Positions 1,423-9,788 of a stretch of 64,000 bases of DNA are shown in pieces (the first letter of the stretch is position 1; every line of letters starts with the position of its first letter). The position numbers and the translations under genes are program-made. The DNA is taken from the NCBI GenBank assembly GCA_024403965.1, contig JAKSQU010000001.1:8957-72956 (forward strand), in the 5' to 3' direction. Below the pieces are notes generated by a model. It did not search any database. It saw only the letters and a program-made list of their open reading frames with translations, and was not told the origin of the DNA. Source of the stretch: Ruminococcus sp. (GTDB lineage Bacteria > Bacillota > Clostridia > Oscillospirales > Ruminococcaceae).

Positions 1423-1929
1423 TTATTCAATTGAATTTAAAGCCTGAGTGATATTATTAACAGTTTTTTCAATGTTTTTTCCGTTTTCATCAATGATGAT
1501 ATCGGCATATTTTTCGTATAGCGGACATCTTTCAGAGTATAAATCAGATAATTTCTGACCTTTTCTGATAACTACTCCCCTGTTTTTTATGTTTCCGAGT
1601 CGGTATTTCAGCTTGTTATAGTCGAGTTTCAGGTAAATAACAGTGCCGATTTCACATAAATGTTTCATTGCTTCTTCACCGTAAACAACACTTCCGCCTG
1701 TAGCAATAACTGATTTGTCTGCTTTCAGCTTTTTAACAACTTTGTTTTCAGTTCCGATAAATCCGTCGATACCTTTTTCTGAAATAATATCTTTAAGAAG
1801 TTTATTTTCATTTTCCTGAATGACAATATCTGTATCAACAAAGCGGTAACCGAGAATTTTTGCGAGAATTACGCCGACTGTACTTTTTCCTACGCCCGGC
1901 ATACCGATAAGAACAATGTTATTTTTCAT
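1423..1929 (-). CDS. aroK: Shikimate kinase
   Basis: GMPGVGKST P-loop; FVDTD; IATGGS; ERCPLY. Confidence 0.9.
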   Translation of the reverse strand: MKNNIVLIGMPGVGKSTVGVILAKILGYRFVDTDIVIQENENKLLKDIISEKGIDGFIGTENKVVKKLKADKSVIATGGSVVYGEEAMKHLCEIGTVIYLKLDYNKLKYRLGNIKNRGVVIRKGQKLSDLYSERCPLYEKYADIIIDENGKNIEKTVNNITQALNSIE

Positions 1930-2053
1930 AATATCTCCCCTTTTTATATTTTGTTATATTGTAGCTTATTTGCTGTGATTTGTCAACATTACAGAAAAAC
2001 AGTTGAAACCAAAAAGATTATATGATATAATGCTTTTTGAAGAAGGTGAAGAA

Positions 2054-3010
2054 ATGTCGGCAAATCCGTTTAAGTATTCTTTAGATAACAAACGTTATCA
2101 CACGCTGAATTATTACAATAAAACCAAATATGGCAATAAGCTGTATAAAGCAGTAATTGAATGCGGTTTTACCTGTCCGAATATTGATGGTTCAAAAGGT
2201 TTCGGCGGATGCATATTCTGTGACGGCGGAAGTGGTTATTTTACTGCACCTGAACTGAATATAAAAGAACAGATTGAGAATGAATTCAGAAGAATTTCGT
2301 CAAAATACGGAGAAAACGTATCACTTACTGCATATTTTCAGGCGAATACAAATACATATGCACCTGTTGAAAAACTGCGAGAGATTTATTATACAGCACT
2401 TGAATTTCCTTATGTAAAAGCTGTATCAATCGGGACTCGCGGAGATTGTCTTTCGGAAGAAATACTTGACCTGTTAAGTGGACTTAATAATAAAACAGAG
2501 CTTACAGTTGAACTCGGAATGCAGACAGTGCATGAAATAACCATAAACCTGATAAACAGATGCTGTACACATGAAGAATTTCTTGATGGTTACAACGGGC
2601 TGAAAAAGAGAAATATCAGAACCTGTCTGCATATAATAAACGGTCTTCCTTTTGAAACTGAAGAAATGATGCTTGAAACTGCTCGTCAAACCGCACAGCT
2701 GAAACCTGATGCAGTAAAATTGCAGATGCTCCATGTTATAAAAGGGACAAAGCTTGCTGAAATGTATGAAGACGGCATGTCGGAACTGCTTTCGAAAGAA
2801 AAATACATAGACATTATCGTAAAACAGCTTGAATTACTGCCAGAAGAAACAGTAATCGAACGAATTACCGGTGACGGAGATAAAAGCAAGCTCATTGCAC
2901 CTAAATGGAGTACTGATAAAATATCTGTACTCGGCGGAATTGACAAGCGCATGGCAGAACTTGATACATGGCAGGGCAAAAAATATATTGATTCATCAGC
3001 TAAGCATTGA
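2054..3010 (+). CDS. Radical SAM protein, YhcC/YtqA (TIGR01212)-like
   Basis: CPNIDG-x6-CIFC cluster motif; YFQANTNTY; IERITGD. Start placed at ATG 2054 after the AAGGTGA RBS. Confidence 0.85.
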   Translation: MSANPFKYSLDNKRYHTLNYYNKTKYGNKLYKAVIECGFTCPNIDGSKGFGGCIFCDGGSGYFTAPELNIKEQIENEFRRISSKYGENVSLTAYFQANTNTYAPVEKLREIYYTALEFPYVKAVSIGTRGDCLSEEILDLLSGLNNKTELTVELGMQTVHEITINLINRCCTHEEFLDGYNGLKKRNIRTCLHIINGLPFETEEMMLETARQTAQLKPDAVKLQMLHVIKGTKLAEMYEDGMSELLSKEKYIDIIVKQLELLPEETVIERITGDGDKSKLIAPKWSTDKISVLGGIDKRMAELDTWQGKKYIDSSAKH

Positions 3011-3029
3011 TTTTAGCTCAATACCACAC

Positions 3030-3070
3030 AAAAAAGCTCCTGTATGAGATATCAGAGTACAGGAGCTTTT
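3030..3070. terminator. Bidirectional intrinsic terminator
   Basis: AAAAGCTCCTGTA ... TACAGGAGCTTTT inverted repeat with A/T tracts on both sides. Confidence 0.8.
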
Positions 3071-3629
3071 ACTATTCAATTGTTAGTTAGGAAAGACAGA
3101 ATAAACTGTCTGAACGACTTTCATCGTTTTGCTGAATTAACCTTCGGACTCACCCTTTCGGTATTAGTGTTCGATAAGATTCATTAATTTTTTCATGATA
3201 TCAGCAACCTTTTTCTTCATTTAGGTCTGGATAAGCTTAAGTTAAAAAACTTCAAGCATAAATTTTTATCTCATTGGACTCAACCTTTACTCTATATTTT
3301 TTCAGTATTTAAAGACAAATTGTCAGAAATTTCAGATAATCCTGTATCTAAAAAACAATATTGAATTTTAACTGCAATGTAAAGCTGAATGCCGTTATTA
3401 TTAATCGAATTACTCACAATTTATTATGTATTATTCAGAACAAGCGTAAAGCCTATATTCTCTCTTTGAAAATTCAATTATTAACCATTGACACCGGCTT
3501 TTAAAGAATGACTAAAAGAACTTTCCACCGGACTCACTTTCCTTTCCGCATAAATTAAATTTACTTTGAGTTTATTCTCAAAACCAAGCAAACTGAGCTT
3601 TGGGAACTTTTTTCTGTTTCCCTTTCCTT
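3030..3629 (-). ncRNA. Candidate ~600-nt noncoding or micro-ORF RNA with three AAAGG..TGAGTCC repeats
   Basis: Consensus promoter at 3636-3664, terminator at 3030-3070, no ORF of 60 aa or more in between, several hairpins. Confidence 0.5.
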
Positions 3630-3635
3630 GAGTAT

Positions 3636-3664
3636 ATATTAACACAATATTTGTGAAAAGTCAA
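3636..3664 (-). promoter_or_regulatory. SigA-type promoter pointing into the ORF-poor 3030-3629 region
   Basis: TTGACT-17 bp-TAATAT with extended -10 TG. Confidence 0.7.
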
Positions 3665-3765
3665 TAGTAATTTTCAAGATTCTTGAAACAAATAATAAAC
3701 TTTGTTATATTATACAATACAAATGCTGTTCTGATATGCAAAATAACCAATGTATTTATTACCAC

Positions 3766-3794
3766 TTGCATTTTACATAAATTTGTTGTATAAT
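3766..3794 (+). promoter_or_regulatory. SigA-type promoter for the DUF1292 gene
   Basis: TTGCAT-17 bp-TATAAT. Confidence 0.65.
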
Positions 3795-3894
3795 GATTTA
3801 GACACGTTAATTAAAACGTGTTATCACTCCGTAAAGTTTTTATTAACGGAGCAACGATGTATCAACAATGGCTTATGCCGGAACGGAGACTATT

Positions 3895-4212
3895 ATGTCT
3901 GAAATGAACGAATACACACCTGACCTTTTTGAACTTGTTGATGATGAAGGCAACAAGAGAAATTTTGAACTTATTGATGCGGCTGAAATAGACGGAGAAG
4001 AATATTTTGCACTTGTTCCGTCAGCAGAAGATGAAAACTTCCTTGACGAAGACAATGACATCGTTTTCCTTAAAACAATTGAAGAAGACGGCGAAGAAAT
4101 CCTTGCATCAATTGATGATGACGATGAATTTGAAAGAGTATCAAAATTCTTCCTTGAACGTATTGCAGATATGCTTGCAGACGATGATTTTGATGACGAT
4201 GTTGAAGATTAA
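3895..4212 (+). CDS. DUF1292-family small acidic protein
   Basis: LVDDEGNKRNFELID...YFALVP...LASIDDDDEFERV pattern; start after GGAG. Confidence 0.8.
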   Translation: MSEMNEYTPDLFELVDDEGNKRNFELIDAAEIDGEEYFALVPSAEDENFLDEDNDIVFLKTIEEDGEEILASIDDDDEFERVSKFFLERIADMLADDDFDDDVED

Positions 4213-4302
4213 TCACTAAGATTTAAGAAAAAGTCATCTTTTTTTATAAAAAAGTCTTGATTTTTTTGAAAGTATATGTTATAATACATATGTCAATTGA
4301 AT

Positions 4303-4480
4303 ATACTGCCTTGTTCGAGTATTTATAGTTTTTATAATCCAACACATTTTACAAGGGAATTCAGCTCCGTATGTGGACTGCAGACCTCCCGTCCTGCGGA
4401 AGAAGGGAGCGAGAATCATTCGGGCGTTTACCCACCTGCTTCGTGCGGGTTTTATTCGCTATAAGACGGCAAGGCGGTGA
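4303..4480 (+). ncRNA. ssrS: 6S RNA
   Basis: Closing stem ACTGCCTTG(4305)/CAAGGCGGT(4477); Firmicutes 6S motifs GGGAGC, CCCACCTG, GCGGGTT; own TTGATT-17-TATAAT promoter (4257-4285) and downstream terminator. Confidence 0.85.
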
Positions 4481-4491
4481 GTGTTTAAATC

Positions 4492-4564: not shown

Positions 4565-4912
4565 ATGGATATTCCCGTGTTTATTGCTTTAGTAATTCTT
4601 TTTGTTATCTGTATTCTTGAAGTGTTTTTTCTTTTAAGATGTCCTAAAATTAAACAGTTTCCTGTTTATCTTTTGATAAGTCTGTATGGAAGTGATGAAG
4701 ATATAGAGCAGATTTTAAGCTATACAATTTATCTTCTCAGCAATGATACAGACGGATTCAGAAGAGTTTTTTTATTATATGAAGAACTTACAGACAGTCA
4801 GAAGATGCTTTGTGAGAAGTTTTGCAGTGAAAATACATCTGTATATCTTGTAAAAACTGAAAATATTGAAAATTTCTTGCCGAAAATAATTGATTTTAAT
4901 GAAAAAATATAG
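4565..4912 (+). CDS. Hypothetical protein with N-terminal membrane anchor
   Basis: GGAGGTG RBS; hydrophobic N-terminus; 115 aa. Confidence 0.65.
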   Translation: MDIPVFIALVILFVICILEVFFLLRCPKIKQFPVYLLISLYGSDEDIEQILSYTIYLLSNDTDGFRRVFLLYEELTDSQKMLCEKFCSENTSVYLVKTENIENFLPKIIDFNEKI

Positions 4913-8984: not shown

Positions 8985-9788
8985 ATGAAAAGACCAGTAG
9001 CAATTCTTGCATCTTTACTTACAGCAGCAACATGCATGACAGCTTTCACTTCATGCGGTGATGACAGACTTTATATGCCTGACCTTTCAGGTATTGATTT
9101 TGAAAAAGCAAAGGAAGAATTTGATTTTCTTGAGCTTACAATTTCAGCAGAAGCACAGAGCAGTACAACTCTTAAGGGCAAAATTATGGAGCAGAGCATC
9201 AGACCTGGTGCTAAAATAACAGAAGGACAGAATGTACTTCTTACAATCAGCTCAGGTGAAGATACTCCAAGAGTATTCAAGGATGGTGTTGATACAGGTG
9301 AAACTGTTCCGCCTACAACTGAATTAACTACAGAAATTATTACTACAACAGCTGTATCAACAGAAGAAGTACCTACAACAACTGTACTTGAACCTGGAAT
9401 GTTCGTTATGCCTAATTTCAGAGGTGTACTTCTCTCAGAGGCAGTTGAGGAATATGGTGACAAGATTAATTTCCAGATTAAAGAATATACAGACAGTGAC
9501 CTTGCACCAGGTCAGATTGTACGTCAGGATGTAACAGAAGGAACACCATGTGACAGCGGTACAACTCTTTATGTAACAATTGCAAACGGTGCATTCAGCG
9601 GCGGCAATCTTACACAGCAGGAAACAACTGAAACATATGACTATGATTATAACAATGGTTATGATAATTCATGGGGATATGATAACAGCTATGATTATAA
9701 TGATTATGGTTATGATTACAACAACTATGGCTATGTCAACGGCTATGATAATTCATGGGGATATGACAACGGCAACTACGAATGGTAA
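8985..9788 (+). CDS. Lipoprotein with two PASTA domains and a Tyr/Asp/Asn/Gly-rich tail
   Basis: AGGAGG RBS before ATG 8985; lipobox FTSC; PASTA motifs MPDLSG...GKIMEQS...LTIS and MPNFRG...GQIVRQD. Confidence 0.8.
   Translation: MKRPVAILASLLTAATCMTAFTSCGDDRLYMPDLSGIDFEKAKEEFDFLELTISAEAQSSTTLKGKIMEQSIRPGAKITEGQNVLLTISSGEDTPRVFKDGVDTGETVPPTTELTTEIITTTAVSTEEVPTTTVLEPGMFVMPNFRGVLLSEAVEEYGDKINFQIKEYTDSDLAPGQIVRQDVTEGTPCDSGTTLYVTIANGAFSGGNLTQQETTETYDYDYNNGYDNSWGYDNSYDYNDYGYDYNNYGYVNGYDNSWGYDNGNYEW
9660..9765 (+). repeat. 23-bp direct repeat TATGATAATTCATGGGGATATGA (9660 and 9743) within the NGYDNSWGYDN repeats
   Basis: Both copies read directly in the sequence. Confidence 0.85.

Follow-up and report, generated by a model that had tools for sequence, protein, structure and literature searches.

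Known ribosome-protected RNAs and related systems

Ribosome-protected stable messenger RNAs are known in the Firmicutes from the STAB-SD of Bacillus thuringiensis cryIIIA (PMC4113751), the same principle being found in B. subtilis hbs (PMC5737220), and the B. subtilis yrzI/spyTA transcript, a very stable RNA of about 500 nucleotides (nt) encoding multiple small peptides, is protected by ribosomes at a Shine–Dalgarno (SD) sequence of exceptional strength (PMC12067863). The latter is the nearest precedent for the RNA described here, which is about 600 nt long and is encoded next to a DUF1292 gene in a 64,000-nt stretch of Ruminococcus sp. DNA (contig JAKSQU010000001.1 of assembly GCA_024403965.1; the window in the following). 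The RNA gene represents a new, previously undescribed family of Ruminococcus and some relatives, and on balance its product is probably a ribosome-loaded, structured, strongly transcribed stand-alone RNA of the minus strand with multiple small open reading frames (sORFs). A preliminary description of the window had pointed to a unit of this size with no long open reading frame (ORF) and with three repeats complementary to the 3′ end of 16S ribosomal RNA (rRNA); the RNA goes beyond that view by combining structure, micro-ORFs and an array of extended-SD modules. To our knowledge, no RNA has been found that unites conserved micro-ORFs with a fold supported by covariation and with arrayed, far-reaching ribosome-binding modules sharing a fixed spacer.

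As in STAB-SD, hbs and yrzI, the SD-like elements of the RNA are complementary to the 16S 3′ end over an unusual length, and here they include a conserved start-less AAGGAAAGGGA at the 5′ end of the transcript. Unlike in those RNAs, with which there is no sequence similarity, the modules are distributed along the whole molecule (2–6 in the genus, more in distant versions), they contain a fixed spacer, UGA(G/U)UCC, that reaches into GGAUCA of the 16S tail, and the associated ORFs are only 2–16 codons long. Compared by length alone, the peptides would have 9–16 residues versus 49 and 17 in spyTA.

Dual-function small RNAs, such as Staphylococcus aureus RNAIII/hld, B. subtilis SR1/SR1P and Escherichia coli SgrS/SgrT, are also stand-alone, structured and abundant molecules of a few hundred nt with a short conserved ORF, and the present RNA resembles them in being an independent transcript with its own promoter and terminator. 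It differs in having several ORFs instead of one, and its repeats are purine-rich and SD-like, unlike the C-rich anti-SD loops of RNAIII and RsaE. The succession of SD, AUG, one to three sense codons and stop is shared with minigenes (lambda bar; the axe-txe regulatory minigene; PMC2490762, PMC8708949), the known examples of which are, however, single elements in phage or operon RNA, whereas the present ones form an array on a chromosomal RNA that is conserved. CsrB and RsmZ likewise are abundant RNAs that do not resemble messengers and bear short purine-rich repeats in variable number. The GGA-in-loop signature of these RNAs, with multiple GGA in hairpin loops, is missing here, as neither module 2 nor the module consensus contains GGA, and a CsrA sponge is excluded, CsrA (PF02599) having been found in 0 of 41 genus genomes, the E. 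coli, B. subtilis and Thermotoga maritima controls being positive. Finally, the RNA is of the same size class as ROOL, OLE, GOLLD, HEARO, raiA and 6S RNA and shares with them long-range helices supported by covariation as well as high expression, the gene for 6S RNA lying at a distance of about 700 nt within the same conserved locus; unlike ROOL, OLE, GOLLD, HEARO and raiA, the RNA matches none of 4227 Rfam models. We know of no arrays of ribosome-binding sites and sORFs on these RNAs.

Promoter, terminator and transcript

The limits of the transcription unit are set by the following elements.

3030–3629, minus strand: RNA of about 600 nt, with RNA-library contigs, without Rfam match, conserved in the genus
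3636–3664, minus strand: sigma-A-type promoter (−35 TTGACT at 3659–3664, 17-nt spacer, TG at 3643–3644, −10 TAATAT at 3636–3641)
3073–3083, minus strand: conserved ACAAUUGAAUA, just ahead of the terminator
3032–3070 (stem; U-run to 3030), minus strand: intrinsic terminator

Transcription is predicted to start near 3629. The promoter is near-invariant, TTGAC(A/T)-N17-(TGTG)-TA(A/T)TAT, in 39 of 42 unique homologues, and no other 3′ hairpin of the fold is as strong as the terminator (a terminator scan overlooked it because of its 13-nt loop), which covaries, relatives having canonical GC-rich terminators of many pair types at the same place. The lack of a long ORF was confirmed, the longest one comprising 54 amino acids and starting inside the promoter. 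Promoter, terminator, motifs and micro-ORFs all lie at the positions proposed for them in the preliminary description; the palindrome to which it had drawn attention just upstream of the −35 element is correctly placed as well but is not conserved in relatives.

Expression is documented by RNA contigs in metatranscriptome assemblies of two studies. Taking into account that contig word depth is a rough guide only, and that contigs give neither strand nor true level, a contig of run X2 covers 3058–3612 at a word depth of 65 versus 3.5 for the flanking contig, and one of run X1 covers 3143–3612 at a uniform depth of 1031 versus 3–12 for flanking contigs. Run X3 yielded two separate contigs (3229–3612 and 3068–3217), and run X7, from horse gut, one of 3225–3483. 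In X1, X2 and X3 alike, contig cover stops at 3612, short of the predicted start by 17 nt; positions 3613–3823 and 2562–3047 have no RNA contig cover, which is not to be equated with silence. The proposal of a discrete, expressed and conserved unit is thus borne out by the promoter, the terminator, the contigs bounded by them and the homologues. In metatranscriptomes of the gut, the RNA appears to be one of the most abundant transcripts of the R. flavefaciens group, although it lacks annotation and matches no RNA family.

Promoter, terminator and sORFs all point to transcription of the minus strand. The X1 contig is fused to the Illumina read-1 adapter exactly at 3143, 3 nt past module 3, and a 6S-containing contig of known orientation bears the same adapter on its 3′ side; taken together, the two adapter positions give a weak hint of minus-strand transcription. 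The adapter-joined end at 3143 suggests an abundant shorter species in that sample, while run X2 reads through from the 3143 region to the terminator.

Modules complementary to the 16S tail

The modules and the two longer sORFs are arranged along the transcript, from its 5′ end, as follows.

3602–3628, minus strand: 5′ leader AAGGAAAGGGAA, SD-like and conserved, running into hairpin P1
3530–3546, minus strand: module 1, GAAAGGAAAGUGAGUCC, predicted ribosome-binding site of sORF1
3481–3528, minus strand: sORF1, MESSFSHSLKAGVNG, GUG start, 15 codons in the window
3275–3289, minus strand: module 2, GUAAAGGUUGAGUCCAAUGAGA, leading the mini-ORF AUG AGA UAA at 3266–3274
within 3164–3213, minus strand: degenerate module AAAAAGGUUGCUGAUAUC, ahead of sORF2
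3164–3196, minus strand: sORF2, MKKLMNLIEH, behind the degenerate module
3146–3159, minus strand: module 3, GAAAGGGUGAGUCC, start-less, just behind the sORF2 stop

A module consists of a purine tract and UGA-(G/U)-UCC, usually followed by R-AUG. Over the 42 unique homologues of the genus, each of which carries 2–6 modules, the consensus is an R-rich tract followed by U-G-A-(G 81%/U 19%)-U-C-C-(A/G)-A-U-G-R-R-A. The 16S rRNA 3′ end of the genus, as read from L031–L033, is GGAUCACCUCCUUUCUA, and the earlier suggestion that the repeats resemble extended SDs was upheld: with a 22-nt sliding window, the three best duplexes with the 16S tail along the RNA are formed by the three motifs (−18.7, −15.5 and −12.3 kcal/mol), to be compared with a mean of −10.3 kcal/mol and a first percentile of −17 kcal/mol for 1180 gene starts. 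The value of −18.7 kcal/mol belongs to module 1 and is in the top 0.25% of those gene starts (−23.0 kcal/mol for the version of the relatives), that of −15.5 kcal/mol to module 3, and the 5′ leader (−10.1 kcal/mol) is average for a gene SD. Within this leader the start-less AAGGAAAGGGA is conserved at +2 to +13 of the predicted transcript, an SD-like element away from any start as in STAB-SD, and the start-less module 3 is likewise complementary to the 16S tail. Start-less and AUG-bearing modules have a downstream ...AAUUUAG in common.

The motif is rare outside the locus. AAGG-N0-5-TGAGTCC occurs five times on both strands of the 1.98-Mb genome, three of them here, and the density of TGAGTCC is 3.6/kb in the RNA family versus 0.021/kb genome-wide, an enrichment of about 170-fold. 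Conservation in relatives, on which the preliminary description had made its proposal depend, was found in 40 other genus genomes, where the TGAGTCC form is almost confined to this locus with 2–3 copies each (the search pattern also permitted TGATTCC). The middle G, described earlier as the same extra G in each repeat, is indeed strongly preferred (97 of 124 unique modules), but it is not invariant. In distant versions the orthologous modules read GTGATCC, GTGAATCC and GTGATTCC, with the middle base varying or missing; among the variants at orthologous sites (GAUCC, GAAUCC, GAUUCC, GAGUCC) the flanking bases pairing with 16S GGAUCAC are retained, which fits a predicted bulge opposite GGAUCAC. 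No complement of GAGUCC was found in the 16S rRNA of the genus other than in its 3′ tail, and the own genome was found to contain no other site with the complete complement of the module (GGACUCAC...CCUUUC) that could give rise to an antisense or partner RNA.

In the closest relative, L034, three tandem units of about 71 nt (1580–1750, minus strand), each containing GAAAGGUGAGUCCC-AUG-AGA-UAA, bring the number of modules to six; modules therefore multiply by tandem duplication.

The module consensus can also be paired with the anticodon stem-loop of initiator tRNA-Met(CAT) (GAGUCC/GGGCUC, GGGU/ACCC), located with ARAGORN at 9636–9712 of a contig of the own genome, at −21.6 kcal/mol, better than 200 of 200 shuffles, and CUCAU of the same loop is complementary to the conserved AUGAG that follows the module. 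This predicted pairing, which would need opening of the stem and is lost in GAUUCC variants, is a lead only. Mimicry of the tRNA T-arm and K-loop ideas are not supported by the module variants.

Short reading frames

The micro-ORFs, treated as incidental in the preliminary description, turned out to be conserved in frame, length and start codon. In relatives, sORF1 has 16 codons in 34 of 42 unique homologues, encoding ME-x4-QQREAGGLAE, and always starts with ATG or GTG; its variable codons 3–6 contain no in-frame stop, compared with 14 and 6 in the other frames (naive P = 3e-4). sORF2 has 9–10 codons in 37 of 42, the two forms being separated by a 3-nt indel, and starts with ATG, GTG or TTG in 38 of 42. 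Its stop lies 14–15 nt before GAGUCC of module 3 and 1–4 nt before the purine tract of the latter. Distant versions encode related 10-codon sORF2-like peptides (MK..RY..I), with a module 11 nt past the stop. Behind later modules (2 and 4), mini-ORFs of 2–4 codons are present in 52 of 66 cases versus about 22% expected by chance, mostly as AUG-AGA-N-stop, with AGA as second codon in most copies and a free third codon; that of the window, AUG AGA UAA, has the SD, AUG, one to three sense codons and stop of a minigene.

The fact that start codons vary only among ATG, GTG and TTG, and that ORF lengths are fixed, is counted for translation. Conservation of frames speaks more for an ordinary start of translation at the modules than for pure parking of 30S subunits. 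Frames, lengths and start codons may be read as evolutionary signs of translation, overlapping with constraints of RNA structure.

Conserved RNA structure

The following structural elements are conserved.

3602–3622, minus strand: hairpin P1, GGGAAAC/GUUCCC, of variable length
3559–3593, minus strand: hairpin P2, with outer stem, conserved internal loop CUUGG-NN and inner stem UUGAG/CUCAA
3378–3504, minus strand: long-range helical domain, enclosing the hairpin 3437–3462
3269–3352, minus strand: conserved block B, with hairpins CAGG/UCUG and GAC/GUC followed by module 2 and its mini-ORF
3113–3128, minus strand: 3′ hairpin AACGA-UGAAAG-UCGUU

In the long-range domain, the 3′ half and stop region of sORF1 pair with a stretch located about 110–140 nt downstream: UGAAGCCG inside sORF1 is joined to CGGCUUCA about 140 nt downstream, and the helix continues with the stop region GUAAUUGGAUU and AAUUCAAUUAU, where 9 of 11 pairs covary. 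In P2, compensatory changes are found in AUCUAC/GUAGAU and, as GC/AU/CG, in the inner stem. A manual five-helix model of the 5′ half, counted on 31 sequences, comprises 39 pairs, which are 95.5% paired versus 31–47% with slid partners; 21 of them have compensatory changes, and 0 of 500 shuffles were as good. Block B is 80–85% identical across the genus, and the seven pairs of the 3′ hairpin are 98% paired, with changes from G-C to A-U and from U-G to C-G. Among the hairpins that had been noticed earlier, UUUGAG/CUCAAA, which is the inner stem of P2, and ACGAU-GAAA-GUCGU are accordingly conserved with compensatory changes, whereas AGACAG/CUGUCU is not conserved. More than 400 of the approximately 600 nt are non-coding yet conserved and structured; the fold of the window's own sequence is modestly more stable than that of shuffles (z = −2.2).

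Three other pairings were considered and set aside. A local hairpin in sORF1, AAGCC-GGCG-GGCUU, is broken in L041 and L045, in which the distal pairing is retained. A closing helix between the 5′ and 3′ ends (AGCUGAAUUUAC with GGUAAUUUAGCU), as given by RNAalifold, was dropped in view of uncompensated changes in L012, L014 and the window. A pseudoknot between UUGG of the P2 internal loop and CC(A/G)(A/G) of module 1 is compatible with most sequences, not with that of L082, and is unproven.

Distribution of the family

The host genome is a 76%-complete metagenome-assembled genome (MAG) of 1.98 Mb with 39.6% GC, in which the RNA region is single-copy. The region was found in 28 of 36 same-genus genomes as three blocks with one motif in each. 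Carriers include named R. flavefaciens strains, and the cultured ones are ATCC 19208, YL228, YAD2003, MA2007, MC2020, Y1 and YRD2003. Longer versions of 0.55–1.2 kb lie upstream of DUF1292 in MAGs of other Oscillospiraceae and share the promoter, 5′ leader and multiple modules with the genus RNA, the number of modules reaching 9–11 in versions of 1.1–1.2 kb. These distant versions were located solely via DUF1292 synteny; a covariance model of P2 plus module 1 matches only this genus among 150 family genera.

That the RNA is undescribed, a point for which the preliminary description had called for an Rfam scan, holds true: with 4227 Rfam 15 models nothing was found in 3011–3867 at E up to 1, nor in the RNA region of seven homologous loci at E up to 0.1, the 6S RNA downstream of DUF1292 being the sole match in these scans, and the region is not a decayed protein gene. 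Phage and plasmid collections searched with the region gave no match, and no description of this RNA was found in literature searches.

Proposed mechanism and alternatives

In the reading that we favour on balance, the repeats would be a shared translation-initiation module, usually placed one base ahead of AUG or GUG, that pairs with almost the whole single-stranded 16S 3′ tail (GGAUCACCUCCUUUC). Ribosomes would load at the modules and translate sORF1 (15–16 codons), one to four mini-ORFs of 2–4 codons and sORF2 (9–10 codons), the start-less copy right behind the sORF2 stop could hold a 30S subunit, and the stability and abundance of the RNA would be due to ribosomes bound to it or translating it. 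For sORF1 to be translated, the long-range helix that holds its 3′ half would have to open. The cellular output may be the peptides, the RNA itself, possibly as a translation-controlled switch, or the engagement of ribosomes, possibly with titration of ribosomes or tRNA.

Several observations weigh against this proposal. In terms of energy, modules 2 and 4 do not exceed the average SD, and GAGUCC is absent from the spacers of the 1180 ordinary gene starts. The preference for G in UGA-G-UCC goes beyond what simple anti-SD pairing explains, so that another ligand may read the module. In L023 (G024), sORF1 is frameshifted by the loss of one base (MEETLNSSVKPAGLLSRRN), the nucleotides downstream being identical to those of relatives, which reflects either an assembly error or an RNA sequence that matters more than the peptide, and the peptides of sORF1 are not the same in distant versions. 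Much of the apparent peptide conservation coincides with pairing, since conserved codons are also paired (sORF1 codons 9–16 in the long helix, AGG-UAC of sORF2 in a hairpin); structure alone could therefore fix sequence and spacing.

Were the RNA only a messenger, its function would reside in a 16-residue acidic and a 9–10-residue basic/hydrophobic peptide; these might, for example, interact as small toxin and antidote do in B. subtilis yrzI/spyTA, and the modules would be simply strong ribosome-binding sites. Such a plain micro-peptide operon would account for the conserved frames and start codons and for the recurrence of the sORF2-like peptides in distant versions, and has the spyTA precedent (PMC12067863). 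It is nevertheless unlikely in view of the large conserved and structured non-coding part, the lack of conservation of sORF1 peptides across the wider family and the mini-ORFs and start-less modules, which yield no useful peptide; moreover, processing or export genes are not linked to a locus whose constant neighbours are only DUF1292 and 6S RNA. Alternatively, by extending the sponge idea of the preliminary description, the RNA would be a ribosome-directed decoy that occupies 30S subunits at 3–10 extended SD sites and in which futile cycles of 2–4 codons may sequester initiator tRNA, tRNA-Arg or peptidyl-tRNA hydrolase in the manner of lambda bar minigenes. The very high apparent abundance, the multiplicity of modules in the genus and even more in distant versions, the presence of a start-less module and the conservation of AUG-AGA-N-stop with a free third codon agree with a decoy, and short ORFs containing AGA have documented minigene effects (PMC2490762, PMC8708949). 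However, in a Firmicute of 40% GC there is nothing unusual about AGA as a codon, and the pairing of modules 2 and 4 is not above that of average SDs, so that a decoy is considered distinctly unlikely. We also know of no ribosome-directed decoy of such kind in any bacterium, which counts against it. A similarly slim chance is given to the view of the RNA as a ribosome-directed counterpart of the neighbouring 6S RNA, in which the 3–10 extended-SD/minigene modules of an abundant decoy would capture 30S subunits and set the free translation-machinery pool, possibly with capture of initiator tRNA or peptidyl-tRNA hydrolase as well, and in which the long-range sORF1 helix would act as an on/off switch.

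The near-invariant UGAGUCC with its G preference, the absence of a motif of this type from normal gene starts, the module number, variable as in CsrB-type RNAs and including the three tandem 71-nt units of L034, and the ...AAUUUAG common to start-less and AUG-bearing modules might instead speak for an untranslated sponge, the purine tract and UGAGUCC of which would be recognized by an RNA-binding protein or small RNA, AUGs and short frames being by-products. With CsrA not found in the 41 genus genomes, a module 2 devoid of GGA, no complementary partner in the genome, and starts that change only to other starts with frames kept, this sponge is quite improbable. It is highly improbable that the RNA is a precursor processed to several small RNAs with a module at the start or the end of each: the adapter-joined, hence discrete, end at 3143 in X1 and the two separate contigs of X3 would be explained, but X2 assembles 3058–3612 as a single piece, X1 does so for 3143–3612, including modules 1 and 2, at uniform depth, and the long-range helices argue for an intact molecule. 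Next to no credence is given to a decayed protein gene, a mobile-element remnant or chance clustering, for which no supporting point was found and against which stand conservation in blocks with compensatory pairs, indels that outside the sORFs are not in threes, the single copy in the genome, the absence of phage or plasmid matches and the motif enrichment. A leader-peptide attenuator is excluded, as the terminator ends the RNA and no downstream gene is on the transcript.

In the rumen and hindgut, bacteria of the R. flavefaciens group have a key role in fibre degradation. Provided that ribosomes are the target of the modules, the RNA would offer a natural system for extended SD pairing, ribosome-mediated RNA stabilization and minigene effects, and possibly also for titration of the translation machinery. 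Direct testing is feasible since cultured strains carry the RNA, which in any case adds a new family to RNA annotation and is likely to confound the analysis of metatranscriptomes from rumen and gut.

Neighbouring genes

The RNA gene occupies an 857-nt gap (window 3011–3867) between two plus-strand genes, the second of which is followed by 6S RNA.

2003–3010, plus strand: radical-SAM gene ("YhcC-like"), TIGR01212, tRNA-modification enzyme MnmL/YtqA (315 bits)
3868–4212, plus strand: DUF1292 gene, the other flank of the gap
4300–4484, plus strand: 6S RNA (63 bits in the Rfam scan), directly 3′ of the DUF1292 gene

The divergently transcribed DUF1292 gene is the sole constant neighbour of the RNA gene across the loci compared, and the genus, Ruminococcus (R. 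flavefaciens group), was assigned from its relatives. 6S RNA is found downstream of it in the window and in seven of seven scanned loci (L006, L034, L061, L089, L091, L100 and L102). The DUF1292–6S pairing is kept even in distant relatives; RNA, DUF1292 and 6S therefore form one conserved locus. The neighbour 3′ of the RNA gene, convergent in the window, varies between genomes, the radical-SAM gene being present only in the window and in L034; given this restricted linkage and its score as MnmL/YtqA, a role of its product as peptide maturase was rejected. The terminator between the radical-SAM gene and the RNA gene stands back-to-back and is common to both.

Between 6S RNA and RecD2, an ORF of 115 residues (4565–4912, plus strand) has no Pfam or NCBIfam match and is weakly conserved, at 28–38% identity, in a few relatives. 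The DUF1292 leader (3824–3851, plus strand) contains an anti-SD-like UCACUCC that can pair with a downstream ACGGAG (hairpin CUCCGU/ACGGAG), and a 16-codon upstream ORF reaches into the DUF1292 start region; to judge from these sequence features, hairpin and upstream ORF may exert translational control of DUF1292.

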